Below, piece after piece: positions 1 through 37,881 of a stretch of DNA of 60,622 nt. Where the stretch lies: IMG/VR virus record IMGVR_UViG_3300037343_000158, positions 1 through 60,622 of that record; one strand, written 5' to 3'. A program made the translations under genes and the position numbers. The notes below the pieces were generated by a model. It saw only the letters and a program-made list of their open reading frames with translations, made no database searches and was not told where the DNA came from. The stretch comes from a virus. Lineage: Duplodnaviria > Caudoviricetes. Within the stretch, counting starts at the first letter, position 1; each line of letters begins with the position of its first letter.

Positions 1-75
1 CCAGACGACCTCACTGAAAAGCTGTGGGCAGACAACGCTGCCAATTACCCTAAGGCGCAATCCACTGGGATTTAG
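1..75 (+). CDS. 3' end of a hypothetical protein (truncated by window start)
   Basis: Frame 1 is open from base 1: PDDLTEKLWADNAANYPKAQSTGI-TAG; converges on ORF 72..299. Confidence 0.45.
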   Translation, partial: PDDLTEKLWADNAANYPKAQSTGI

Positions 76-299
76 CTGTACTGGTGAATCCAAGTGGTAA
101 TAACTTTCTCCCACTCGCGAAAGTTGTCTGTATCTCCGCCAACTTCCAATCCACGCTTCACACTTACTTCGCGTTGATACCGAAGCTCTCCTTCGGAATT
201 ATAAATCTTTAGATTACCTCGCCACATGTTCTCGCCTATTGACTCAATAACTACTGAGTAATTCTCTATCTGGCTTTGCCAAATCATATCTGGTTCCAT
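72..299 (-). CDS. hypothetical protein (75 aa)
   Basis: ORF with AAAGAGGAAA RBS-like sequence upstream of ATG. Confidence 0.65.
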   Translation of the reverse strand: MEPDMIWQSQIENYSVVIESIGENMWRGNLKIYNSEGELRYQREVSVKRGLEVGGDTDNFREWEKVITTWIHQYS

Positions 300-314
300 G
301 GTTTCCTCTTTTTA

Positions 315-334
315 CGGGGTGGGAGCGCGAAAAA
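315..334 (+). repeat. dispersed direct repeat, copy 1 (CGGGGTGGGAGCGCGAAAAA)
   Basis: Matches consensus CGGAGYGNGAGCGCGAAAAA; abuts the stop codon of ORF 335..1054. Confidence 0.85.
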
Positions 335-1054
335 TCACATTCTGGTTCCGAGAGCAGACCTGTACCACTCTCTGCCGTCTTTAACATTATGCACGAACCT
401 GACGTCGGTGACTCCTACAGAGTTCAGCCAATCGGCCCACTTAGGCTCGCAGTCTATGTACTCTCCACCCAAAAGAGCGAACGGGACTTCATACGCGTGC
501 GCAACAATCGCCGCATGCATTGAGCCTGCCAAAACAAACCTTGCTCCAGAGACTTTATCTATGAAGGCCATAATGTCTGCGCGGTCCTCGACAACGGGGC
601 TAAAAAGTGCGTCTGCGCCTAGCTCGTGTATCGAATTGACGTTGTAATCCGACTTGTCCAGAATGTGCCGTACTGCAAACGCAAGACCATTAGGCGAAGA
701 CTTAGGGTAGATTCCTGGAAGCATGTATGCGGGGTCTAAGGTGATTTCAGTTTCAATCCCGTGCTTTCTAAGTTCCGCTTGAGTGTTTGGGCCTCGTACT
801 CCATCAAACTCTGCAGTCTCTAGCAACTCTGGGTCCAAGCTTTCGCCTCTCCAGCCACAGCGGTGAAAGACGGCAATTTTCCCAGCATCGGCAGCAAGCT
901 TAAGGTGCGTGTTGCTTATGACACTTCCAATAGGAAAGTGCACACTGCTAGGGTCCAAAGACCATTCGTGGTGCTTCAAGGGGTCAAGGAACACTTCTGG
1001 CAAAGCGTCACCAAAGTTTCGGGTTACCCCGTCTAGTTTCCATTCGTAAATCAT
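335..1054 (-). CDS. polysaccharide pyruvyl transferase family protein (ExoV-like)
   Basis: Motifs NFGD, IGSVI, GVRGPNT, DPAYMLP, SMHAAIVAHAYEVP, KWADW. Confidence 0.8.
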   Translation of the reverse strand: MIYEWKLDGVTRNFGDALPEVFLDPLKHHEWSLDPSSVHFPIGSVISNTHLKLAADAGKIAVFHRCGWRGESLDPELLETAEFDGVRGPNTQAELRKHGIETEITLDPAYMLPGIYPKSSPNGLAFAVRHILDKSDYNVNSIHELGADALFSPVVEDRADIMAFIDKVSGARFVLAGSMHAAIVAHAYEVPFALLGGEYIDCEPKWADWLNSVGVTDVRFVHNVKDGREWYRSALGTRM

Positions 1055-1087
1055 TAACCCAATCTTATCGGGTGTATGCTGAGTTGT
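1055..1087. promoter_or_regulatory. back-to-back putative leaderless promoters
   Basis: -10 TAAGAT (minus, 1062-1067) 7 nt before ATG 1054; -10 TATGCT (plus, 1075-1080) 7 nt before ATG 1088; no RBS for either gene. Confidence 0.55.
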
Positions 1088-1303
1088 ATGGATGACTACG
1101 AGTACGACGGAAAAGAACGAGACGCCAGACAGTTCGAAGAGAGGATGTCATTAGCATCTTTTAAGGGCAAATCCGTTGAGTACCTTATCCGAGCTGAAAC
1201 TGCTGCGGGCTACGATGTCGGGTTGCACTACGCTCAAATTGCTCAAGCTTACGCAACGCTGGAGCTTGCTCGCGTTACTGGAATTCAAAGGCGCTCTAGT
1301 TAA
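1088..1303 (+). CDS. hypothetical protein (start re-called to ATG 1088)
   Basis: ORF track 1076..1303; the in-frame ATG at 1088 follows a -10 box. Confidence 0.6.
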   Translation: MDDYEYDGKERDARQFEERMSLASFKGKSVEYLIRAETAAGYDVGLHYAQIAQAYATLELARVTGIQRRSS

Positions 1304-1490
1304 ATCTGTCTTCTTGCTCAATCATCTGAACGGCTCTTTTTACAAACTGCTCAGGACTGTTCATCTTCAGCAGAAGCAGGTCCAGCATCAGTAGGGCCAG
1401 GATTCTTCTTTTTTCGTCCTGCACCCCCTGCTGGTAAATCTGCTCCTCTATCATGTTCCTCGGCTGCTTCTCGGTTCCCATGGCACTCAC
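1296..1490 (-). CDS. small hypothetical phage protein (start may be 1481 or 1454)
   Basis: QQGVQDEKRRILALL pattern typical of small phage helical proteins. Confidence 0.5.
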   Translation of the reverse strand: MSAMGTEKQPRNMIEEQIYQQGVQDEKRRILALLMLDLLLLKMNSPEQFVKRAVQMIEQEDRFN

Positions 1491-1587
1491 ATTCGCACTT
1501 AGTCATTTCGCCTTTTACGGCCCAGTTTTCAAACTCAACTCTACAGCCAGCGTGATGTCCCGTTGCGCACCACCCAAAAAAAGCCAT
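1351..1587 (-). CDS. small Cys/His-rich hypothetical protein, possible Zn binding
   Basis: ATG 1587 gives MAFFGWCATGHHAGC...CECECH; in frame with track ORF 1351..1860; overlaps the next gene. Confidence 0.45.
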   Translation of the reverse strand: MAFFGWCATGHHAGCRVEFENWAVKGEMTKCECECHGNREAAEEHDRGADLPAGGAGRKKKNPGPTDAGPASAEDEQS

Positions 1588-1627
1588 ACCTAACCATAAC
1601 TCATTTCTATCCTTCCTTTTTCTCTGT

Positions 1628-1657
1628 CGGAGCGGAAGCGCGAAAAAACGATTTTTG
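1628..1657 (+). repeat. dispersed direct repeat, copy 2
   Basis: CGGAGCGGAAGCGCGAAAAAACGATTTTTG. Confidence 0.85.
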
Positions 1658-1684
1658 AACTTACGAGTACCGCTAAGATAGTCG

Positions 1685-1851
1685 GTGTGGAGGCATGCAC
1701 AACCACTGCGTAATTGGACGGTCGGTTGTGTTTCTTCTCTGCTAGGTAAACCGAAGACAACCGTGAGGAGGTCGGAAAACGTATCTAGGGGAGGTGCCAG
1801 GAAGCATGGATTGGGATTTCTCGATTGGTCTGGCACCTCCGCCTCCACACT
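1685..1851 (+). ncRNA. putative structured non-coding RNA (~166 nt, multi-branch)
   Basis: Perfect 10-bp terminal stem 1685-1694/1841-1850; 7-bp stem 1698-1704/1724-1730; 7-bp stem 1742-1748/1782-1788; CC-GTGA-GG GNRA loop; perfect 11-bp stem 1790-1800/1830-1840; -10 TAAGAT at 1674-1679 just upstream. Confidence 0.6.
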
Positions 1852-1897
1852 CCCCCCCACACCTAAACTCCCCTATTTCTCTGGAAGATTCCCTTTA

Positions 1898-1927
1898 CGG
1901 AGCGAGAGCGCGAAAAAACGAGTTTTG
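1898..1927 (+). repeat. dispersed direct repeat, copy 3
   Basis: CGGAGCGAGAGCGCGAAAAAACGAGTTTTG. Confidence 0.85.
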
Positions 1928-1945
1928 TGGTGTAGTATCTATTAT

Positions 1946-2512
1946 ATGACAAATGACAATTCTCAGTGGAGCTACTCCCTGACCCCTCAAGAAGAAGCAA
2001 CTTGCGCTCGCGTTGGCTTTGAACGCCAAGAGCCCTACCTCGCAAGGCCCGAAGCTAATCGAAGATACTCCCAAGGAGACGTTGCAGAGATTTGGCAACA
2101 CTCAGTTGCTGCTGGCTCTGAAATGGCCTTTGCTCGAATGGTTGGCCTTAGTGATTTTGTTCCCCACGTAAACAAGTGGAGGTCCGCTGCAGATGTTCCC
2201 CCCTACGAGATTAGGTATTGCTTTACCAATAAAAGGGTGGACGACTCGACTTGGTCCCTGAGGCATGAAGAAGGCGACGACATAGATGTTGCTTATGTAC
2301 TCCTTGTTGGCGGGCTCGAAGATATGAAGCCGAGGGACAGAGATAACGTATCTCCTCCCTACACAGCGGTTGGGTGGATGTGGGGCTCTGACTGCCGACA
2401 GTCCACTTTTGAGCTTACCCAGATATCTAGCAAGCGCCGTTGGAGAGTTCCCTTTGACCAACTGAGGTCTATGGCAGAAGTGACTTCTCCTCAATACGTT
2501 AACGGAGTGTGA
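1946..2512 (+). CDS. hypothetical protein, possible PD-(D/E)XK (restriction-endonuclease-fold) nuclease; start re-called to ATG 1946
   Basis: AGSEMAFARMVG helix, ADV..YEIR, later GW and WRVP..L motifs; -10 TAGTAT at 1933-1938, 7 nt before ATG. Confidence 0.6.
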   Translation: MTNDNSQWSYSLTPQEEATCARVGFERQEPYLARPEANRRYSQGDVAEIWQHSVAAGSEMAFARMVGLSDFVPHVNKWRSAADVPPYEIRYCFTNKRVDDSTWSLRHEEGDDIDVAYVLLVGGLEDMKPRDRDNVSPPYTAVGWMWGSDCRQSTFELTQISSKRRWRVPFDQLRSMAEVTSPQYVNGV

Positions 2513-2522
2513 GCGCGAAAAA
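2503..2522 (+). repeat. dispersed direct repeat, copy 4
   Basis: CGGAGTGTGAGCGCGAAAAA; contains the TGA of the upstream ORF and its last A is the A of the HNH ATG. Confidence 0.85.
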
Positions 2523-2953
2523 TGCCGAAAAAGGACAGAGAAGACTACAACGCATACATGCGTGAGTATTTAGCTAATCGCTATCGCGAGCGCAGAGAAT
2601 TGCTTATTTTAGAAATGGGCGGAAAGTGCGTTAAGTGCGCCAAGACAAGTGATTTGGAGTTTGACCATATCGACCCCGAAAACAAATCCTTCCCCATATC
2701 CAAAAGGCTCACTAGTGCGAGCATGGATGTTATCCGAGCAGAGAGCTTAAAGTGCCAACTTTTATGCGTCCCATGTCACAAAGAGAAAACCACTAAGGCG
2801 TCTTCCGTTGGGCACGGAGGTGGCAAGACAGGTATGAGAAACTGTCGATGTACTCTCTGTGCACCCCTAAAGAACACTGACGCACGAGAACGTAAGCGTG
2901 CTAAAGCTAAGCAAAAAGCCCTATCTATTGCTTTGACTTCACAGGGAGAGTGA
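2522..2953 (+). CDS. HNH endonuclease
   Basis: CVKC...LEFDHIDP...KCQLLCVPCHKEKT; extra C-terminal HG...CRCTLC motif. Confidence 0.85.
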   Translation: MPKKDREDYNAYMREYLANRYRERRELLILEMGGKCVKCAKTSDLEFDHIDPENKSFPISKRLTSASMDVIRAESLKCQLLCVPCHKEKTTKASSVGHGGGKTGMRNCRCTLCAPLKNTDARERKRAKAKQKALSIALTSQGE

Positions 2954-2973
2954 GCGCGAAAAAACGGGTTTTG
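2944..2973 (+). repeat. dispersed direct repeat, copy 5
   Basis: GGGAGAGTGAGCGCGAAAAAACGGGTTTTG; contains the HNH stop codon TGA. Confidence 0.85.
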
Positions 2974-3132
2974 CACGAAGTTTTATAGGGGCATTTTCCT
3001 TGTATTTACTGGGCAAAGTGCCTAAATTGTACGAACTCCAAATGAACATTAGGTATAATACAAATAAGTAATACAGTTTTAGACATAACACTGTATGATA
3101 TAGTCTAGTTAAACGACAGAAAGAAGGTAATT

Positions 3133-3339
3133 ATGAGTATCAATTGGAAAGCACCATTCGAGTTTGCATTTGAGCTAGGTATGTTCCTGCTCGGCTCTAT
3201 TTTGGTCCTCGCTATCGGCATCATCGCCATTGTTTTGGTCTACGGTTTGGTCAAAAGCCTCTTCGTAACCTTAGGCAAAGCGAAGAATAAGAAGAGCGAA
3301 GACAAGAAAAGCTTTTTCAAGATGCACTCGGTAGACTAG
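3133..3339 (+). CDS. small membrane protein
   Basis: Long hydrophobic segment plus Lys-rich tail; AGAAGG RBS. Confidence 0.7.
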   Translation: MSINWKAPFEFAFELGMFLLGSILVLAIGIIAIVLVYGLVKSLFVTLGKAKNKKSEDKKSFFKMHSVD

Positions 3340-3345
3340 GAACTA

Positions 3346-4068
3346 ATGACAGTCTTTAACTCAGACATGACCGTAGAGCTGGTCAAGCACAGTGCGTCAG
3401 ATACCGATGTAATCTTCGCTGCCAAGGTTTCAACCCAAGGCGAGCGCTCATTTCACGGCAACGAGGGGTTCTCCGAGGACGCGTCAGACAGGCAAGCTGG
3501 TCTAATCAACTGGCTGGTTCGCGACCGTCACGGTTCTCCTTTCGAGCACTCTGTCTTTACTTTTTATGTAAAAGCCCCTATTTTTGTTTGGAGAGAGCAC
3601 ATGCGTCACCGCATGGCTAGCTACAACGAAGAGTCGGGACGATACAAGAAGCTAGAGGCAGAGTTCTACGTTCCAGACGTATCTCGCAACCTTATCCAGA
3701 CTGGCAAGCCAGGAGCTTACGTATTTAGTGCAGGCACCCCTGAGCAGTACGAAGTTGTGTCTAACAGCTTTGTTACTTCCTGCGAAAGTGCTTACGCAGA
3801 ATACACAGGGATGCTGGACGCGGGAGTTGCCCGAGAGGTGGCCAGAGCAGTTCTGCCCACAACCATTTACTCATCGGCATACGTCACCATGAACGCCCGC
3901 GCTCTTATGAACTTTTTGTCACTGCGTCGCAACGTAGAAGGTCAAAGGTTTCCGTCATACCCACAGCGCGAGATTGAGATAGTCGCAGAGAAATACGAAG
4001 CCATCTTCGAGGAGCTCATGCCATTGACCCACAAGTCTTTTGTTGCGAACGGAAGAGTAGCTCCGTAA
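3346..4068 (+). CDS. thyX: flavin-dependent thymidylate synthase ThyX
   Basis: HGSPFEH, RHRMASYNEESGRY (RHRx7S), REVARAVLP, NARALMNFLSLR, QREI. Confidence 0.95.
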   Translation: MTVFNSDMTVELVKHSASDTDVIFAAKVSTQGERSFHGNEGFSEDASDRQAGLINWLVRDRHGSPFEHSVFTFYVKAPIFVWREHMRHRMASYNEESGRYKKLEAEFYVPDVSRNLIQTGKPGAYVFSAGTPEQYEVVSNSFVTSCESAYAEYTGMLDAGVAREVARAVLPTTIYSSAYVTMNARALMNFLSLRRNVEGQRFPSYPQREIEIVAEKYEAIFEELMPLTHKSFVANGRVAP

Positions 4069-4742
4069 TGACTGAAGGCATTGCTTATTGCTATGCACGA
4101 GTCTCAACTCAAATGCAAGCAACAGACGGTATGAGTCTTGGAGCTCAGGAGAAGCAGCTAATCGCTGCCGCTGAGTTGGCTGGCTATACGCCTGTAATTC
4201 TTAGAGAAGAGGGGCGCTCAGGGAAGAGTATTCAAGGTAGACCAGTGCTGAAGAAGGCACTGGAAGAACTTGACTCTGGGCTTGCTCAGGCTATGTATGT
4301 CACAAGGTTGGACCGACTAGCTCGCTCCACTCGAGACTTTCTCAGCATTGTTGACCGTTCTCATAAGTATGAATGGCGATTAGCCCTGCTTGACCTTGGG
4401 CTAGACACTGCCACATACCAAGGAAGATTCGTCGTCACAATAATGTCAGCCATGGCTGAGATGGAAAGAGGAATGATTTCTCTACGCCAGAAGGATGTCC
4501 ATCAAGACCGACGTGATAACGGCAAAGTCTGGGGAGTTGACATTGGCCCTAAGTCAGTACTGGACATAGACCTAAAGCAAAGAATTTGGAATGAAAGAAA
4601 CGCTGGTCTTTCTTTTAACGTTATAGCTCAGAAGCTGAACAAAGAGGGAGTCCCAACAACTAACAAAGGTAAAGAGTGGTACGCAAGTACTGTTCGATAC
4701 GTCTTTGTGGCATTCTCTAAAGAAGTCACTGATGTTGTCTAG
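4068..4742 (+). CDS. serine recombinase (resolvase catalytic domain plus short recombinase-type DNA-binding domain)
   Basis: YARVST catalytic Ser, GRPVL, RLDRLARS, AEMER, IAQKLNKEGVPT...WYASTV; TAATG overlap with thyX. Confidence 0.9.
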   Translation: MTEGIAYCYARVSTQMQATDGMSLGAQEKQLIAAAELAGYTPVILREEGRSGKSIQGRPVLKKALEELDSGLAQAMYVTRLDRLARSTRDFLSIVDRSHKYEWRLALLDLGLDTATYQGRFVVTIMSAMAEMERGMISLRQKDVHQDRRDNGKVWGVDIGPKSVLDIDLKQRIWNERNAGLSFNVIAQKLNKEGVPTTNKGKEWYASTVRYVFVAFSKEVTDVV

Positions 4743-4743
4743 C

Positions 4744-4899
4744 TCAGGACTTTTTATCCAGGTCACGCACTGAGACTAGCCAGTCGTCTTTCAACTTAGC
4801 AACCGCCGAGAGCAAAACAAGTCCAGACATTACCAATAACAGAACCCACAGGATTGCCAGCACCCCAGCCACAATCAAAAGAATAATTAAAAAGTCCAT
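4744..4899 (-). CDS. small membrane protein (51 aa, not in ORF track)
   Basis: MDFLIILLIVAGVLAILWVLLLVMSGLVLLSAVAKLKDDW...; -10 TATCAT 6 nt upstream of ATG. Confidence 0.6.
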   Translation of the reverse strand: MDFLIILLIVAGVLAILWVLLLVMSGLVLLSAVAKLKDDWLVSVRDLDKKS

Positions 4900-5029
4900 A
4901 AGTAAATGATACAACTTTTCGGAACTGACACGCGATAATACATGCGGTAAACCTTAAGGTTATAGATTAGGTTTAGGGACTTACGTATGATAGTCTTGAA
5001 AGTGGACAATCTGGGATACAAAGACATAG

Positions 5030-5506
5030 ATGGAGAATGACATGAGCTATGAGCTCGTAGAAGAATACGCAACAATGATTGTGCCTATACTACCTCAGGC
5101 AAAGCAGGCGTATGGTGCTCGTAACCAGTCCTCGCCAGCCCACGAAGCAAGCAGGGAGTACACCCGATTGCTCACAGAGTTTTACAACAAAGGTGGAAGT
5201 CTTCCTTTGCTTGCAAAGAAACTAGAAGTAGCGTATGCGGGAGTTCGCCGTCGCGTTGTTATGAATGACATTACTGTGTCAGCTTTCAGGCCAAAGGTTC
5301 GCGTAAAAAATCAGGACATCAAATCAGCTGCGTCTCGAGTGACTTCTGCTCGTAAAAAAGACGGAGACCTGTATCACGACCAGTTGGCTGAGGAATACCA
5401 GAACGGTATCTCTCTTTCTAACTTGGCAAAGGAATTAGGACTCAGCTCAGCTGCACCCCTGTATTATGGAGTTCAGAGAAGTTTGCAACGTAACTCAAAG
5501 AAGTAG
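5030..5506 (+). CDS. tandem-HTH DNA-binding protein (candidate terminase small subunit or regulator)
   Basis: Two HTH-like segments (GGSLPLLAKKLEV, GISLSNLAKELGL); immediately upstream of TerL. Confidence 0.55.
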   Translation: MENDMSYELVEEYATMIVPILPQAKQAYGARNQSSPAHEASREYTRLLTEFYNKGGSLPLLAKKLEVAYAGVRRRVVMNDITVSAFRPKVRVKNQDIKSAASRVTSARKKDGDLYHDQLAEEYQNGISLSNLAKELGLSSAAPLYYGVQRSLQRNSKK

Positions 5507-5513
5507 GTGACCT

Positions 5514-8234
5514 ATGGGCAAAAGTTTGATGGAGCTTATTGCGCTTTTGCCCATAGAGGAGCAACAGGCTGTCCTTGCTGATATGGACATGGACCAGCTC
5601 ATGTGGGACTGGAACGTTTGGGCTCGCCCTGAGCAGTTAGCACCCGAAGGTGACGACTGGAACGTATGGCTAATTATGGCTGGGCGTGGATTTGGGAAAT
5701 TTTTGGAGATGTCCACTCCAATACTCTATACAGATGGTACGTCTACATACTTCAAAACTATCGGGGACATTCAAACGGGCGACACCATTTTTGATGAGAA
5801 TGGTAAGCCCACTAAAGTACTGCAAGCTCACGTCCCTGATATACCCAAGAGGATGTTTCGTTTGACTTTTTCAGACGGCACTACCTTGGACGCAGGTGAA
5901 GAGCACCAATGGGTAACATGGACCCACTCGGACAGGAAAGCCTATAACCGAAATGTCGGCGGGGCCAAAGGCCTTCCCGATAACTGGCCTCAATGGAAGT
6001 CCACGATTTCTCGCCTGAGATTAGGGTCTCGCATTCCCGTGTCTACTATTGACCGCGCTTTTGAACTTGTGGGCGCTGGGATGTCGGTTAGGAAAGCTGC
6101 AACCAAGCTTGGAGTTTGTAGACAGGCCCTCGCCCCTCACATGCAAGCTGGCAGAAATCTTCACTCGACCATAAATTACGTTAGGCAAGAAACAGGCGTA
6201 GGGCCAAAAATACGCAACACTCAGGAAATTGTAGATTCTTTTACCTACAACGACAGAGGCGACTTCAACCACTCAATTCCCGTAACAGGGGATGTTTCAA
6301 CGCCAATTGCTGATTTACTTATTGACCCGTATTTACTTGGGGTATTTCTTGGAGACGGGACTACTGCATCTAGTGGCTTTACTCAGCACCGTGATGATAT
6401 GGGTCACCTCGTAGATGCAATTTCGGCTGCAGGATACACCCCAACAGAGCCAAAGTATAGAAAACTAATGCACCCTAATACAGGTTCTGTAACTGCTAGG
6501 GGTCTTATCTCTGACTTACGAAAAATAGGAGTACCAGGAACCAAGCACATCCCTGCTGAATATTTATATGCCTCAGCCGACCAACGCTGGGAGCTCTTAG
6601 CTGGCCTACTAGACTCTGACGGATTTATTGACGCTAAATCGGGATATATAGAATTTTCAAATACTAATAAGAATCTTGCCGACGGCGTCATGTTCCTTGC
6701 TCGCTCGCTTGGGCAGAAGCCCACTATGGCGGAAAAAAAGACTCACGCGACTGCTAAAGACGGTACGCGTACTCCTGGTAAACTTGCTTATCGCATTATG
6801 TGGAGACCAACCCGTAACTTTTTCAAGCTTCCTAGAAAAACTGAGCGGTTTATCCCTCTTGGGAATCAGGCGTCTAGAAATTTTCATCGCATGATTGTTT
6901 CTTTCGAGGAAATAGCTCCCGTACTAAGCCGATGCCTCACCGTTGACTCACCTAACTCCATGTACCTTGCTGGCGAAGCTCTCATCCCAACGCACAACAC
7001 GCGCCTTGGTGCCGAATGGGTCCGCGAGCAGGCAAAATACACAACCACAGGGCAAAGAAGATTCGGGCTAGTAGCTCGTACCGCGGCTGACGTTCGAGAC
7101 GTTTTGGTCGAAGGAGAAAGTGGTATAATAAACATTTCTCCTCCTTCAGAGAAGCCACACTACGAACCTTCTAAGCGAAGACTCACTTGGCCAAACGGTA
7201 ACGTTGCCAGTCTCTTCACTGCAGACGAACCTGATGGTTTGCGTGGACCACAATTTACGCATAGTTGGAGCGACGAAGTGGCGGCCTGGAGACAGACCCC
7301 AGACGCTGCTGGCATGACTGCTTTTGACAATATACGAGTTGGTACTCGTCTTGGAGCCAACCCTCAGATGGTTGTGACCACAACACCAAAAAGAGTGCCG
7401 CTACTTTATAAACTTATTGAAGAATCCAAACTTATAAAGACCTCAGGTTCAAAAGTTATTATCACCAAGGGTTCTACTCTGGATAACGCTGGAAACTTGT
7501 CGGGCGCATACCTAGACACAATTACTGGGGTATACGAAGGAACATCTCTCGCGCAGCAAGAACTTTACGGCGAAATGCTTGATGACGTGGACGGCGCTCT
7601 TTGGACAATCGAAATGATTGATAAGGCAAGAGAGCTTATCTACCCGCCTAGCACCCCCCTGAGAGTTATAGGTGTTGACCCGTCGGTAGCAGAAAACCCA
7701 AGGGACGCTTGCGGTATCGTCGTCTGCGCATCCACTGGAGACAGAGACTTGTACAAGCGCCACGCTTGGGTTCTGGAAGACGCTACCATTCACGGCTCCC
7801 CAGAAGTCTGGGCTAATAAAGTCGTTGAGATGGCTCGTCGCTGGGGCGCACCAGTTGTCGCAGAAGTAAACCAAGGTGGTGCTTTGGTTCGTAACGCAAT
7901 CAACGCTATTGACCCTAGCGTAAAGGTTTTAGAGGTCCACTCAAAATACGGTAAAGCTTTGAGAGCCGAGCCAATTGTTTTGGCCTACGAGCAATCTAGA
8001 ATTCACCACGTAAATTATCTACCCGAGCTAGAGTCTCAGATGACTTCTTGGATTCCAGAGCAGACTCGAAGCTCACCAGACCGAGTAGATGCTTTGGTTC
8101 ACGCCATGACAGCTTTGCTAATTAAGCCACCTGCAGGATTCCATGGAGGAAAGCTAACTGCTAAATCTCCTGCTGCAAGAAAGCTTCCGCCGTTCCGTTC
8201 TGGCGGAGGTAAGGTTTTTAACCCTAACCGTTAG
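5514..8234 (+). CDS. terL: terminase large subunit, intein-containing
   Basis: Walker A AGRGFGK|T split by the intein; LRGPQF, Walker B WSDEVAAW, TTTP, QELYGE, nuclease IGVDPS, SPDRVDALV. Confidence 0.95.
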   Translation: MGKSLMELIALLPIEEQQAVLADMDMDQLMWDWNVWARPEQLAPEGDDWNVWLIMAGRGFGKFLEMSTPILYTDGTSTYFKTIGDIQTGDTIFDENGKPTKVLQAHVPDIPKRMFRLTFSDGTTLDAGEEHQWVTWTHSDRKAYNRNVGGAKGLPDNWPQWKSTISRLRLGSRIPVSTIDRAFELVGAGMSVRKAATKLGVCRQALAPHMQAGRNLHSTINYVRQETGVGPKIRNTQEIVDSFTYNDRGDFNHSIPVTGDVSTPIADLLIDPYLLGVFLGDGTTASSGFTQHRDDMGHLVDAISAAGYTPTEPKYRKLMHPNTGSVTARGLISDLRKIGVPGTKHIPAEYLYASADQRWELLAGLLDSDGFIDAKSGYIEFSNTNKNLADGVMFLARSLGQKPTMAEKKTHATAKDGTRTPGKLAYRIMWRPTRNFFKLPRKTERFIPLGNQASRNFHRMIVSFEEIAPVLSRCLTVDSPNSMYLAGEALIPTHNTRLGAEWVREQAKYTTTGQRRFGLVARTAADVRDVLVEGESGIINISPPSEKPHYEPSKRRLTWPNGNVASLFTADEPDGLRGPQFTHSWSDEVAAWRQTPDAAGMTAFDNIRVGTRLGANPQMVVTTTPKRVPLLYKLIEESKLIKTSGSKVIITKGSTLDNAGNLSGAYLDTITGVYEGTSLAQQELYGEMLDDVDGALWTIEMIDKARELIYPPSTPLRVIGVDPSVAENPRDACGIVVCASTGDRDLYKRHAWVLEDATIHGSPEVWANKVVEMARRWGAPVVAEVNQGGALVRNAINAIDPSVKVLEVHSKYGKALRAEPIVLAYEQSRIHHVNYLPELESQMTSWIPEQTRSSPDRVDALVHAMTALLIKPPAGFHGGKLTAKSPAARKLPPFRSGGGKVFNPNR
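5700..6998 (+). mobile_element. intein (433 aa) with LAGLIDADG homing endonuclease, class-3 signature
   Basis: Starts FLEMSTPI after GFGK; block B EEHQW; LLGVFLGDG and LLAGLLDSDG; block F RCLTVDS; ends IPTHN followed by T(+1). Confidence 0.9.
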
Positions 8235-36299: not shown

Positions 36300-37364
36300 A
36301 TGAAATCAGCAATTTACACAATCGCCCTCAACGAACGTCAGTTCGTGGACAAGTGGTACGAGTCGGTAAAAGACGCTGACTATCTTTTAATTGCAGACAC
36401 TGGCTCTACTGATGGCACGATACAACGCGCCCGTGAGCTTGGCATAAACGTCATTGAGATTAAAGTTACGCCTTGGAGATTTGATGATGCACGCAACGCC
36501 GCGTTAGCCGCACTTCCAGAAGATATTGACATGTGTGTTTCTCTAGACATGGACGAAGTAATCACTCCAGGCTGGAAAGAAGTTTTGACCGAAGCTTGGG
36601 AGCGCGGTGTAACTCGACCTCGCTACAAGCACATTTGGTCTTGGAACGAAGACGGCACTCCTGGACTTGAGTTTAGCTATGACCACATCCACGGTCGCAA
36701 GGGATTCCGCTGGCGTCACCCCGTCCACGAGTGCCTGTATTCTTACGGAATCGAAGAGAAGCAGGAATGGCTCGGCGGAATTGAGACACATCACCACCCA
36801 GACCCAACTAAGAGTCGCGCTCAGTACTTGCCGCTTCTTTCAATGTCTGTAACAGAAGACCCGCACAATGACCGAAATGCTTTCTATTATGGCCGTGAGC
36901 TCTACTTCTATGGTCGGTACCTAGAAGCTGCGGAAGAGCTAAAGCGACACTTAGCGTTGCCTACAGCAGGCTGGGCACCAGAACGAGCCGCGTCGATGCG
37001 GTTTATCGGTAAGTCTCTACCTGCAGAAGCCGAAATCTGGTTCCGCAAGGCCATAGAGCAGGCTCCAGGACGCCGTGAGCCCTACGTAGACCTAGCAAAG
37101 TTGTATTACGAGCGTCAGGACTGGGAGAAGTGCTTAGAGGCTTCAGAGGCTGCCCTAGCTATCAAAGAGAAGCCTTTAGAGTATCTCTGTGAGGCCGAGG
37201 CTTGGGGGTTTGCTCCGCATGATTACGCATCTATTTCGCTGTATTGGTTGGCAGAGTTTGAAAAGGCCGTGGAGCACGCTAAGAGCGCTGTAGAGCTTGA
37301 GCCTCTTGATGCGAGGCTGCAGAAAAATTTAGTAGTGTGTGAAGCAGCCTTAGCTACAAACTAG
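36300..37364 (+). CDS. glycosyltransferase family 2 with TPR repeats
   Basis: IALNE, DTGSTDGT, FDDARNAAL, LDMDE (DxD), PVHE, C-terminal TPR-like helices. Confidence 0.9.
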   Translation: MKSAIYTIALNERQFVDKWYESVKDADYLLIADTGSTDGTIQRARELGINVIEIKVTPWRFDDARNAALAALPEDIDMCVSLDMDEVITPGWKEVLTEAWERGVTRPRYKHIWSWNEDGTPGLEFSYDHIHGRKGFRWRHPVHECLYSYGIEEKQEWLGGIETHHHPDPTKSRAQYLPLLSMSVTEDPHNDRNAFYYGRELYFYGRYLEAAEELKRHLALPTAGWAPERAASMRFIGKSLPAEAEIWFRKAIEQAPGRREPYVDLAKLYYERQDWEKCLEASEAALAIKEKPLEYLCEAEAWGFAPHDYASISLYWLAEFEKAVEHAKSAVELEPLDARLQKNLVVCEAALATN

Positions 37365-37881
37365 GAGGAAGAGCTTTTGCTCTTTTAGCGGCTTTCTTAT
37401 CTTTTTCTCTTTGGCGCTTCAATGCTTTCTCTGCTTTTTCCTGTTGGTAAGCCAAAACCGCGTTAACGCTAGTTCTACTCTTCCACGAAAACTCGCATAC
37501 GGTGCAGATTACTAATCTGGCAGTGGTCCATCTTCCGCCACCTGGAATTTCTACAGACTCTGTGACAAGCTTTGAGGGCCTCGCTGAGCAGTATGGGCAG
37601 TTGGGGTAGCGTCTTCTACGAGCTTCTTCTCCCTTGTACGAGACTGAAAGCGTCCTACGCATTTCTACTTCGTCTTTGCCACCCCAGATGCCCCAAATCT
37701 GCCTGTGCTCAAGCGCCCATTGGAGGCACTGTTTTCTTACAGGGCAGCTAAAACATAAATTTTTTGCATCGTATTTTTCTTTTGGCTCTTTAGAAAAGAA
37801 CCAGTCAATCGAGTTGATGTTCTCGGGTTGGGCGCAGAGGGCTTGGGCCTGCCACTTTAGATTATCTGCTGGTTTCCACAC
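37354..37881 (-). CDS. whiB: WhiB family transcription factor with C-terminal Zn-ribbon-like extension
   Basis: WQAQALC...AKNLCFSCPVRKQC...GIWGG; then CPYC...CTVC and a Lys-rich tail. Confidence 0.88.
   Translation of the reverse strand: MWKPADNLKWQAQALCAQPENINSIDWFFSKEPKEKYDAKNLCFSCPVRKQCLQWALEHRQIWGIWGGKDEVEMRRTLSVSYKGEEARRRRYPNCPYCSARPSKLVTESVEIPGGGRWTTARLVICTVCEFSWKSRTSVNAVLAYQQEKAEKALKRQREKDKKAAKRAKALPPSL

Follow-up and report, generated by a model that had tools for sequence, protein, structure and literature searches.

Organization of the repeat-bearing region

The window analysed here, the whole 60,622-nt IMG/VR record IMGVR_UViG_3300037343_000158, is an incomplete viral contig (CheckV completeness estimate, 45%). 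An actinobacterial host is indicated by the WhiB-like gene in the window and by the nearest isolates, Actinomycetia phage DSL-LC01 and Microbacterium phages. At one end, accessory genes are separated by five copies of a short repeat (Table 1), and a protein with weak HTH matches and the terminase (5030..8234) form the downstream limit of this region. The pyruvyl transferase-like gene has 51-57% identical homologues in the related phages L127, L143 and L153, and the PDB relatives of the recombinase are resolvases, invertases and the catalytic domain of the TP901-1 integrase. Genes for a Sak4-like annealing protein and for an exonuclease are also present in the window.

Table 1. Coordinates of genes and motif copies in the repeat-bearing region of the window
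Feature	Position	Strand	Remarks
75-aa ORF	72..299	-	no family match; homologues in L143, L153
Motif copy 1	315..334	+	CGGGGTGGGAGCGCGAAAAA; flanked by two reverse-strand genes
Polysaccharide pyruvyl transferase-like gene, 239 aa	335..1054	-	PF04230, E=6.8e-12
75-aa ORF	1076..1303	+	no family match
Cys-rich 78-aa ORF, possible zinc finger	1351..1587	-	no family match
Motif copy 2 with right arm	1628..1657	+	right arm ACGATTTTTG; divergent junction
Non-coding 250-nt unit	1648..1897	+	between copies 2 and 3
Motif copy 3 with right arm	1898..1927	+	right arm ACGAGTTTTG; then TAGTAT 1933-1938, ATG 1946
188-aa gene	1946..2512	+	phrog_18407; between copies 3 and 4
Motif copy 4	2503..2522	+	TGA stop (2510-2512) of 188-aa gene inside
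Free-standing HNH endonuclease gene, 143 aa	2522..2953	+	phrog_4234, E=2.8e-30; between copies 4 and 5
Motif copy 5 with right arm	2944..2973	+	right arm ACGGGTTTTG; TGA stop of HNH gene inside
Copy-5 unit	3133..4742	+	membrane protein, ThyX, serine recombinase
68-aa membrane protein	3133-3339	+	copy-5 unit
ThyX	3346-4068	+	PF02511, E=5.8e-48
Small serine recombinase	4068-4742	+	PF00239, E=9.5e-32, plus PF07508
158-aa protein	5030-5506	+	weak HTH matches
Terminase large subunit with LAGLIDADG intein	5514-8234	+	

The core of the repeat, AGCGCGAAAAA, has five exact matches in the window, all on the + strand (324, 1637, 1907, 2512 and 2953), against 0.05 expected by chance, and a count of five or more was reached in none of 100 shuffles. 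A 20-mer consensus with up to three mismatches returns the same five sites (0.02 expected), while a looser 12-mer scan of the window yields seven matches for 5.9 expected, the two additional ones (25289 and 59939) being at chance level. The sequence-only reading, which had described five co-oriented repeats placed at unit boundaries, is thus borne out by both scans and by the genes that the copies bracket, the spacings between copies 2 and 3, 3 and 4, and 4 and 5 being 270, 605 and 441 nt. Copy 1, said to touch the pyruvyl transferase stop, does so: it ends at 334, its A-run directly adjoining the reverse stop codon that begins at 335. This copy is fully conserved in L125, where its surroundings (window 1-1606) are just 89% identical. 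Copy 2 lies upstream of the reverse-strand 78-aa gene, 41 nt from its start; in L143 and L153, + oriented motif copies flank the homologues of this gene, one of them at the place of copy 2, just past the start of the reverse gene. The last A of copy 4 is also the A of the HNH gene ATG (2522), which makes it the one window copy in five that touches a start codon, and copy 5 heads the unit that ends with the recombinase.

The unit between copies 2 and 3 had been put forward as a structured non-coding RNA. Its + strand folds to -84.5 kcal/mol (z=-2.23; an equally good fold in 4 of 200 shuffles) and its - strand gives z=-1.23; an Rfam search of the unit returned no match even at E<=1. The unit is kept in the five close relatives that align with the window there, with too few changes for covariation. 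It may be regarded as a weak candidate structured RNA with modest support.

Distribution of the motif among related phages

A position weight matrix (PWM) describes an asymmetric motif with a conserved left arm of ~26 nt, TAACGGAAnGnGAG(C/G)(G/C)CG(A/G)AAAA, which ends in the A-run and is followed by ~5 variable bases and a T-tract. It finds matches in 52 of 81 related, recombinase-bearing phage stretches, over which recombinase identity is 70-99% while flanks and neighbouring genes differ; conservation of the motif thus reaches well past that of the surrounding sequence. All matches in the 81 stretches lie on the strand of the recombinase and upstream of it, except two reverse copies in L173, and no copy was found downstream of the recombinase on its strand. 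Relatives whose genomes are complete or nearly so have 6-7 copies, grouped in a stretch of ~12 kb. Six copies were counted in each of G005, G007 and G002 and one in G006, and G001 (133 kb) has five at 109-119 kb and two reverse ones at 98-99 kb; a control pattern read backwards gave no match in these genomes. The copies thus form clustered arrays in the accessory region, upstream of the ThyX, recombinase and terminase genes, rather than a genome-wide scatter, and they are intergenic rather than spread inside genes. Across 185,579 bacterial and archaeal species genomes, a scan produced 13 single, scattered matches. The motif belongs to phages and not to bacterial genomes, and it is clade-wide, being common to uncultured actinobacterial phages and not private to this contig.

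Changes in gene content at motif copies

As the sequence-only reading would predict, gene gains, losses and replacements among related phages coincide precisely with the copies. Some breakpoints lie beside the core rather than within it. The HNH unit is present in four of eight close relatives and absent from the other four (L060, L122, L123 and L124), in which copies 4 and 5 are merged into a single hybrid copy. L124 also has an extra 705-bp unit inserted at copy 3, whose gene, encoding a 2OG-Fe(II)-oxygenase-like protein, has core copies on both sides, the second of which is without the left arm; in both this indel and that of the HNH unit, the duplicated segments overlap exactly in the invariant 11-mer. 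In L119, an unrelated 131-aa gene (phrog_13596) replaces the 188-aa gene between copies 3 and 4, the left breakpoint falling within the ORF, 44 nt beyond the core, and in L125 ThyX is precisely missing. Sequence divergence also shifts at the copies: differences from L125 fall across copy 3 from 28/250 (11.2%) to 17/585 (2.9%), and in L121 the HNH unit differs at 21/421 positions, versus 2/585 and 3/382 in its flanks. Overall, 55 of 671 alignment breakpoints lie within 15 bp of a motif, compared with 1.9% under the null, a count in which related sequences recur and are not independent, and in which HSP ends may be drawn to conserved islands. Near-identical, directly oriented copies sit at each unit boundary, and it is for this reason that the relatives differ at the copies.

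Association with gene ends and expression signals

The intergenic copies often bridge the stop codon of one gene and the start codon of the following one, and in many the stop of the upstream ORF, located exactly 20 nt before the end of the core, is the TAA of TAACGG. A start codon is abutted by 40 of 118 distinct copies, versus 415 of 5000 control positions (8%), when ORFs of at least 40 codons are counted (ATG 25, TTG 12, GTG 3); for another 45 of the 118, the start is found 21-80 nt downstream. The distance between the SD-like GAG and the ATG, 9-10 nt, exceeds the 4-7 nt of other genes of these phages. Both reverse copies of G001 precede reverse-strand genes. Copies in + orientation also abut the stop of a reverse-strand gene (window copy 1, L139, L140, L143, L164 and L166), an arrangement seen in 10 of 118 copies (~6 independent sites) versus 102 of 5000 controls. 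The orientation of four or more copies hence does not follow the local gene; a purely start-associated signal is therefore insufficient, and a DNA-level site would explain these cases. The T-tract, 6-9 nt past the A-run, persists whether the context is coding, non-coding or a reverse gene, which points to a DNA-level or RNA-level site spanning the start codon.

Another candidate identity is a composite terminator-promoter element of the kind of the T4 promoter-early stem-loop (PeSL), in which the motif would be the -35/UP part of a promoter for the host RNA polymerase, placed after the terminator of the preceding unit, with no dedicated factor. Among the copies inspected, those of G001 and the L154-L166 group have TATAAT- or TATAG-like hexamers 15 or 19-20 nt past the motif, then AGGAG and ATG, and window copy 3, which likewise has a -10-like hexamer and AGGAG between motif and start, is followed after 15 nt by TAGTAT, a TANNNT-type hexamer seen by eye 7 nt before the ATG. 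The sequence upstream of copies that do not abut a start is pyrimidine-rich and G-poor (69% and 8%, versus a background of 48% and 23%), a canonical hairpin and T-run directly precede copy 2 in L125, two of three G001 copies form a hairpin with upstream sequence (z -2.65 and -2.73), and indels occur at the copies as they do, in published accounts, at PeSLs (PMC2839356, PMC4122927). However, in 40 of 118 copies the A-run is in direct contact with the start codon, which leaves a -10 element no space, and the spacing from motif to -10-like hexamer varies by 4-5 nt. Furthermore, none of the five window copies has a promoter or terminator according to a generic sigma-70 scan, these copies fold no better than shuffles (z -0.79 to +1.0, with no significant hairpin), and the most invariant bases, AGCGCG, are unlike a -35 hexamer. 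A composite promoter is thus an unlikely identity for the motif, and for the promoter that the sequence-only reading assigned to the gene between copies 3 and 4, there is the hexamer seen by eye but no match at copy 3 in the sigma-70 scan.

Site-specific recombination and homing as possible explanations

The proximity of the small serine recombinase raises the possibility that the motif is its recombination site and that units are excised and inserted in an integron-like manner with a serine enzyme. The copies of an array are all co-oriented, even within a reverse-strand gene block, unit boundaries fall sharply at the end of the A-run, whether a forward start or a reverse stop follows, and the HNH and L124 indels share the 11-mer overlap described above. 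In addition, the array is always on the recombinase strand and never further than ~12 kb upstream of that gene, the recombinase is inside the unit headed by the last copy, and every stretch with the motif has the recombinase, the motif being found in none of 8 recombinase-less stretches that offer 5 kb or more of upstream sequence, a phyletic link that is confounded by relatedness. As in integron cassettes and attC sites, co-oriented sites part compact units of one or few genes, some with reversed genes, and a recombinase gene adjoins the array. The integron integrase IntI, however, is a tyrosine recombinase and attC sites are conserved in their folded structure, whereas the present sites are conserved in sequence, with no hairpin or inverted repeat, and no attI or Pc arrangement was seen here.

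Crossover sites of serine recombinases are dyad-symmetric. The motif is asymmetric, its only dyad being that of the A-tract and T-tract around +2.5, where complementarity is at background level beyond 6 bp, and the HNH junctions diverge right after the A-run, so that crossover did not take place at the centre of this dyad. The missing left arm at the L124 insert and the L119 breakpoint within an ORF are also at odds with such a reaction. The recombinase is present without the motif in at least nine stretches (L237, L239, L241, L242, L244, L247, L248, L254 and L256) and in DSL-LC01 (PWM on part of the record, pattern scan on the whole), distant relatives keep orthologous unit order, and no unit was found at two array positions. 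The integron-like system suggested by the sequence-only reading is not supported, given that the site shows no extended dyad and that some stretches have the recombinase and no motif, and a cassette system driven by this enzyme appears decidedly improbable.

It is very improbable indeed that the repeats are footprints of the HNH endonuclease, with the motif targeted and duplicated on insertion and the other copies as potential targets: the unit, present in four of eight close relatives, is flanked by a 14-19-nt direct repeat, is unusually divergent in L121 and has a 63%-identical homologue with motif-like sequence on both sides in L205, but the HNH search found homologues in 6 stretches, versus 52 with the motif, arrays of 5-7 copies exist in genomes where it found none, homing is not normally known to create target duplications, and a footprint would account for one indel and not for the motif.

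Comparison with known systems and proposed role

Actinophages commonly carry repeated, asymmetric motifs between genes whose role is unknown for the motifs described (PMC3203893, PMC7302621). As described by Pope et al. 2011 (PMC3203893), the start-associated sequences (SAS) of Cluster K mycobacteriophages resemble the present motif in being short asymmetric repeats in several to many copies, confined to non-structural genome regions and to a single orientation, and in standing where the ribosome-binding site would be, a few bases ahead of start codons, with the stop codon of the upstream gene sometimes inside the repeat. They are likewise kept between subgroups before different genes, and their role is still unknown in these accounts (PMC3203893, PMC12699233). 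A 13-mer of distant relatives, GGAACGGGAGCCC, located 6-7 nt before ATG, agrees with the SAS consensus in 10 of its 13 bases (hand count). With 3 mismatches in these relatives and 6 in the window copies, the motif nevertheless exceeds the operational definition of at most 2 mismatches in the SAS description; its conserved tract is about twice as long and is supplemented by the A-run, N5 and T-tract. It is present in 5-7 copies in ~10 kb, compared with 11-19 SAS over half a genome, about a third of its copies touch a start and some abut reverse-strand stops. No ESAS-like inverted repeats were seen here, and the phages that carry the motif are unrelated to SAS phages, with genomes of ~135 kb and uncultured hosts.

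Stoperators are spread over the whole genome, whereas the motif copies are confined to one region and have a tighter start-codon spacing. Similarities to Cluster A stoperators and to Microbacterium phage motifs, as these are reported, are the asymmetry of the sites, their position in short intergenic gaps, their orientation with transcription, and their conservation where the surrounding DNA is not conserved, such motifs being thought to bind regulators. Those listed for Microbacterium phages include an 18-bp motif in 12 copies (EC), a SAS-like motif (EF), an 18-bp inverted repeat (EG) and a 30-bp motif in five copies (EI), the last comparable in size (~30 bp) and copy number to that of the window (PMC7302621). 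The sequence of the window motif differs from theirs, and no repressor is known for it. The sequence-only reading had offered, as its alternative, an array of protein-binding sites, either stoperator-like or packaging-related. The first part stands, a stoperator-like array fitting the primary nature of the motif better than a dedicated cassette system; the second does not, as the copies of complete relatives lie between genes and up to 12 kb from the terminase.

For changes in gene content, the repeat-flanked shuffling modules of T4-type phages, also invoked at the outset, provide the best analogy. PeSLs, in the descriptions of Arbiol et al. 2010 (PMC2839356) and Comeau et al. 2014 (PMC4122927), are conserved regulatory repeats at gene boundaries of a plastic region, where insertions, deletions and replacements separate close relatives and recombination between direct copies accounts for the differences. 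Unlike PeSLs as described there, the motif occurs in another phage group and host phylum, has no recognisable sigma-70 promoter plus stem-loop in its conserved part, and in many copies serves as a stop-to-start spacer within operons.

On balance, we lean towards a boundary or regulatory motif akin to actinophage start-associated sequences or stoperators, whose direct copies act as homologous-recombination junctions in the way of T4 PeSLs. The motif is probably a gene-expression signal; it would act in cis and be read as sequence by a factor, probably phage-encoded, in the manner of the Cluster K sequences or of stoperator-type operator sites. Crossing-over between copies would be ordinary homologous or short-homology recombination, with no dedicated site-specific reaction, in a window that encodes its own annealing protein and exonuclease, and the recombination logic at the copies could be that of PeSL-mediated shuffling in T4-type phages.

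Repeat copies and gene organization

The window, an incomplete viral contig of IMG/VR covered here as the entire record of 60,622 bp (CheckV completeness estimate, 45%), holds five copies of the core AGCGCGAAAAA, all on the + strand and located at 324, 1637, 1907, 2512 and 2953, against a chance expectation of 0.05; a count of five was reached in none of 100 shuffles. The sequence-only reading had reported five co-oriented repeats, and a scan for the 20-mer with up to 3 mismatches returned the identical five sites and no others in the window, while a relaxed 12-mer scan added two further matches, at chance level. Copies 2, 3 and 5 are directly followed on their 3' side by ACG-NN-TTTTG. The gene map of that reading agrees with the gene and family searches of the window, compiled in the table. 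Copy 1 ends one base short of the stop codon of the reverse-strand pyruvyl transferase gene, the TGA stop of the 188-aa gene lies within copy 4, whose final A is also the A of the HNH endonuclease ATG, and copy 5 contains the HNH stop codon.

Features of the repeat region and its surroundings in the window
Feature	Position	Strand	Remarks
75-aa ORF	72-299	-	
Pyruvyl transferase	335-1054	-	
75-aa ORF	1076-1303	+	
Cys-rich 78-aa ORF	1351-1587	-	
Non-coding stretch	1588-1945		contains copies 2 and 3
188-aa gene	1946-2512	+	phrog_18407
HNH endonuclease	2522-2953	+	
68-aa membrane protein	3133-3339	+	
ThyX	3346-4068	+	
Serine recombinase	4068-4742	+	PF00239; PDB relatives are resolvases and invertases
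Protein with weak HTH matches	5030-5506	+	
Terminase large subunit	5514-8234	+	906 aa, with LAGLIDADG intein
WhiB-like transcription factor gene	37354-37881	-	phrog_472, E=3.7e-18

The WhiB-like gene and the nearest isolates by primase, namely Actinomycetia phage DSL-LC01 (60%) and Microbacterium phages (49-50%), indicate that the window phage is an actinophage. The WhiB-like gene by itself points to an actinobacterial host, and its product is a possible candidate factor for A-rich promoter regions. The 250-nt non-coding unit at 1648-1897 is predicted to adopt, on the + strand, a multi-branched fold with a 10-bp closing stem (z=-2.23); it is conserved in five close relatives aligned with the window, with most of the changes in the relative L125 falling in one hairpin. 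Rfam gave no match in the whole window at the gathering threshold, nor in positions 1-3400 at E<=1, and a tRNA scan found none; the unit is a weak candidate for a small RNA. Further downstream, three close relatives (L121, L123 and L124) cleanly lack the stretch 5700-6995 (1,296 bp) of the intein-bearing terminase gene, and L060 and L122 differ inside this stretch (6280-6543). The terminase genes of L119, L124 and L125 carry one or two insertions that are absent from the window (1,309 bp at 7216 and 1,044 bp at 7260).

Gene content changes at the repeat copies

Eight close relatives, of 89-99.6% identity, were compared with the window, and indels and replacements among them occur at the repeats, as had been proposed from the sequence alone. 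The 441-bp HNH unit, between copies 4 and 5, is absent in L060, L122, L123 and L124, where the flank alignments overlap by 19 nt and a single hybrid copy forms the junction, its left flank being that of copy 4 and its right flank that of copy 5; these relatives are most simply explained by deletions between the two copies. L124 also has an additional 705-bp unit after copy 3, which encodes a 211-aa 2OG-Fe(II) oxygenase-like protein and lies between AGCGC(A)AAAAAACG at its left end and AGCTCGAAAAAACG at its right end, the right-hand copy being without the left arm of the motif. In L119, the slot between copies 3 and 4 is filled by a different, 131-aa gene (phrog_13596), with breakpoints 44 nt past the core, after the first five shared codons, and at the start of copy 4. 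The two genes that occupy this slot (window 1946-2512; L119:216-611) are unrelated and have in common the 44 nt upstream and the codons for MTNDN. L125 carries an additional 436-bp gene with its own terminator immediately 5' of copy 2, where a canonical hairpin and T-run are found, and precisely lacks ThyX, the alignment joining 3338 to 4066. This ThyX gap (window 3339-4066) is bordered by a motif copy on neither side.

The level of divergence also shifts abruptly at copies. The window and L125 differ at 28 of 250 positions in the unit between copies 2 and 3 and at 17 of 585 in the unit between copies 3 and 4, with the final dense mismatch at 1884 and the next mismatch at 1954; against L121, the HNH unit differs at 21 of 421 positions, compared with 2 of 585 and 3 of 382 in its flanks. 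Among 671 alignment breakpoints, taken from 365 ordered pairs of stretches, 55 fall within 15 bp of a motif, compared with 1.9% of random positions; these counts are non-independent because related sequences enter them repeatedly. L205, a distant contig, carries a 63%-identical HNH gene with motif-like sequence at both sides, and the arrangement is therefore old.

Distribution of the motif

A search of viral contigs with the recombinase yielded 80 related stretches of 61-99% identity, many of which contain the exact core, on the recombinase strand every time. When a position matrix made from 37 distinct exact-core copies was used to scan 81 sources with a cut-off of >=18 bits, matches were found in 52 of them, all upstream of the recombinase and on the same strand, save two reverse matches in L173. 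The motif takes the form T(A/T)ACGGAA-n-G-n-GAG, followed by a short GC-rich stretch and an A-run; the GC-rich stretch varies by lineage, reading GCGCGA in that of the window and GCCCGG, GCCCGA, GGCCGA or CGCCCGG elsewhere. L188 holds four copies of a more distant variant, CAATAGGTGCAGCGGAAAA. These copies (L188:4389-7846) lie about 1 kb apart upstream of the recombinase, among recombinase relatives of 62% identity, and the CGGAAAA end is all that their repeat has in common with the motif. In L176, four tandem units of CCCCCTAA, with an 8-nt period (6800-6831), are located just 5' of a motif variant.

The genome-wide scan suggested by the sequence-only reading was extended to whole records of relatives, and copies proved to be few and clustered, not scattered; the control pattern, read backwards, gave zero matches. 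G001 (133 kb, complete) has five copies at 109-119 kb on the recombinase strand and two reverse copies at 98-99 kb, G005 (136 kb, complete) has six, five of them at 66-74 kb, G007 (161 kb, complete) has six, five of them at 60-67 kb, G002 (103 kb, 78% complete) has six at 18-22 kb, and G006 (135 kb, complete) has one. A motif of host genomes was discarded as a candidate, a scan of bacterial genomes having returned 13 single matches in unrelated taxa. A pattern scan of the viral collection gave 113 stretches, most of which represent one unrelated prophage coding sequence, together with singletons outside the clade; two copies were present in close relatives of the window only. Megablast of window positions 1-6000 against 50,697 phage records gave no match, and an equivalent repeat was found neither in distant relatives without the recombinase (L251, L261, L245) nor in distant relatives with it (L244, L247).

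Position of the motif relative to genes

The positions of 118 distinct copies were classified by neighbouring ORFs of at least 40 codons, with 5000 random positions as a control. A start codon touches the motif in 40 copies (ATG in 25, TTG in 12 and GTG in 3, some of the TTG starts being possibly spurious), compared with 415 control positions (8.3%), and the offset between motif end and start codon is 0 or -1 in nearly all 40; in the window, one copy of the five, copy 4, has such contact. In many of the 118 copies the stop codon of the upstream ORF lies exactly 20 nt before the core end, so that the stop codon is provided by the TAA in TAACGG, and the entire stop-to-start spacer consists of the motif. 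A further 45 copies have the next start 21-80 nt downstream. Inspected copies of G001 and of the L154-L166 group present the order motif, A(C/T)G-NN-TTTT, -10-like hexamer, AGGAG and ATG, with the hexamer, similar to TATAAT or TATAG, located 15 or 19-20 nt after the motif. In G001, the repeat takes in the -10 box and the ribosome-binding site as well as the first codons.

The DNA 5' of copies that do not touch a start is 69% pyrimidine and 8% G, against a background of 48% and 23%, and these pyrimidine-rich tracts may be Rho-loading or terminator-like elements. Long tracts of this G-poor kind were seen in the 50 nt upstream of such copies in G001 and other relatives, and at two of three G001 copies such a tract forms base pairs with the purine-rich motif (z -2.65 and -2.73).

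Ten of the 118 copies, from approximately six independent sites that include window copy 1, directly adjoin the stop codon of a gene on the reverse strand (control, 102 of 5000), and a T-tract 6-9 nt past the A-run is retained in coding, non-coding and reverse-gene contexts alike. A reverse block composed of a 75-aa ORF, the pyruvyl transferase gene and the Cys-rich ORF sits amid + oriented copies in the window, L143 and L153. The two reverse copies of G001 precede reverse-strand genes, which are paralogous to the fibre-like genes that follow its forward copies. The genes after copies at this locus, which lies on the minus strand, are glycine-rich, collagen-like paralogues whose products resemble fibre proteins and share an N-terminus (MPILGT...).

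Probable mode of action

The motif is under selection, because it is conserved among unrelated flanks. It is intergenic, tied to gene ends and confined to one accessory region, and relatives recombine at it. Most likely it is a cis-acting expression signal, which would be read as sequence, since the window copies have no significant RNA fold (z -0.79 to +1.0), and by a phage-encoded factor, since the motif is absent from bacterial genomes and since its lineage-specific variants suggest co-evolution with such a reader. Start-abutting copies stand without another ribosome-binding site, so that the motif has at least to permit translation initiation; their GAG lies 9-10 nt before the ATG. In copies with a -10-like hexamer downstream, the motif overlaps the -35 zone. 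Two candidate functions were rejected by eye: a leaderless promoter in start-abutting copies, where positions -12 to -7 read AGCGCG or AGCCCG and not TANNNT, and an intrinsic terminator formed by the A-run and T-run, whose stem would consist of just 4-5 A-U pairs. A phage RNA polymerase or sigma factor was also sought as the reader. No PF00940 match was found in G001, G002, G005, G006 or G007, a negative that says little, the control genomes being silent too; PF04542 likewise gave none in these five records, with the control positive in 10 of 14 genomes.

Exchange at the motif would proceed by homologous or short-homology recombination, which would pair direct copies or the copies of co-infecting relatives. 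In favour of this, breakpoints fall anywhere in shared sequence, be it the core, the core with ACG, or a promoter and first codons held in common, and genes for a Sak4-like annealing protein and an exonuclease are present in the window.

The neighbouring serine recombinase could itself act on the motif copies, an idea that is improbable on the present evidence. Were the motif a DNA-level boundary site bound by this conserved enzyme, one would expect co-orientation regardless of gene direction, sharp junctions at the A-run and a motif never found without the recombinase. The copies are indeed co-oriented independently of gene direction, junctions are sharp at the A-run end, an invariant 11-mer is common to both clean indels, the array is close to the recombinase gene, and the recombinase is present in every motif-bearing stretch examined, a pattern confounded by relatedness. 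Crossover sites of serine recombinases (the res, hix and att type), however, are imperfect dyads around a central 2-bp crossover, an architecture that was not found in the motif: dyad symmetry is confined to the A/T tracts, with complementarity of 0.73-0.85 at three positions and 0.06-0.27 further out, and the HNH junctions diverge ahead of the centre of this small dyad. Moreover, one of the copies flanking the L124 insert is without the left arm, one breakpoint (the left one of L119) falls outside the motif, the recombinase occurs without the motif in at least nine stretches and in DSL-LC01, and the order of orthologous units is unchanged in distant relatives. It is doubtful that the motif combines the roles of operator and crossover site for this enzyme; if it did, large lytic actinophages would carry, upstream of their terminase gene, an array of gene cassettes served by a serine recombinase, comparable to an integron but made from another enzyme family and with an asymmetric site.

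Integron arrays proper adjoin an IntI-type tyrosine recombinase, and their attC sites fold in single-stranded form, being imperfect inverted repeats. The integron-like part of the sequence-only reading fails on both counts, the recombinase being of the serine type (PF00239) and the window copies having no dyad past the A/T tracts and folding no better than shuffles (RNA parameters), while its unit boundaries, with changes of gene content at the copies, are supported.

Comparison with known systems

Stoperator sites are bound by a phage repressor that blocks transcription in one direction, and are thought to be one type of site active both at promoters and inside operons. The position of the motif in short intergenic gaps and its orientation are compatible with such a function; a site fixed a few bases ahead of start codons is what characterizes start-associated sequences (SAS).

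In behaviour, the SAS of Cluster K mycobacteriophages are the nearest known system. According to PMC3203893, SAS have the 13-bp consensus GGGATAGGAGCCC, present in 11-19 copies with <=2 mismatches, 3-7 bp before starts, with ATG preferred, in one orientation and in the non-structural half of the genome; the upstream stop codon is sometimes inside. PMC12699233 describes their function as still untested as of 2025. Like SAS, the motif is asymmetric, has a single orientation and is restricted to a non-structural region. Compared by hand, the best 13-mer among relatives, GGAACGGGAGCCC, shares 10 of 13 positions with SAS and is located 6-7 nt ahead of ATG, and GGAGCGAGAGCGC of window copy 3 agrees at 7 of 13; both have more than two mismatches to the consensus quoted in the text. 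The motif alignments of the SAS and Microbacterium papers may contain closer matches than this consensus.

In evolutionary consequence, the nearest system is that of the promoter-early stem-loops (PeSLs) of T4-type phages (PMC2839356, PMC4122927), with close relatives showing indels and replacements at motif copies. A PeSL combines a sigma-70-like promoter with a stem-loop terminator, and mini-circles as circular excision products are a further trait of such cassettes. Neither a consensus promoter or terminator nor a significant fold was found at the window copies. Parts of this type do occur in relatives, namely the -10-like hexamers after the motif, the terminator before L125 copy 2 and the hairpins at two of three G001 copies. 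Several analogous motifs are described for Microbacterium phages in PMC7302621, e.g., a 30-bp motif in five copies in cluster EI. The observation of the sequence-only reading is thus confirmed and its interpretation partly supported: the repeat is a real, conserved boundary motif, which resembles SAS in position and PeSLs in the way it affects gene content.

Implications

Repeated intergenic motifs such as SAS have been catalogued for 15 years in cultured actinophages, and their function is not known. A related-looking motif has now been followed through dozens of uncultured phage genomes of approximately 135 kb, with far more natural variation than before, spanning lineage-specific variants, a near-match to the SAS core, and copies that fill stop-to-start spacers, precede -10 boxes or stand ahead of reverse genes. 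This variation restricts the possible readers of the motif, and supplies defined test sequences. Furthermore, actinophages have a counterpart of the gene shuffling by regulatory cassettes that is known from T4-type phages of Gram-negative hosts; the genes exchanged at the motif include an HNH endonuclease, an oxygenase-like gene and unknown genes.
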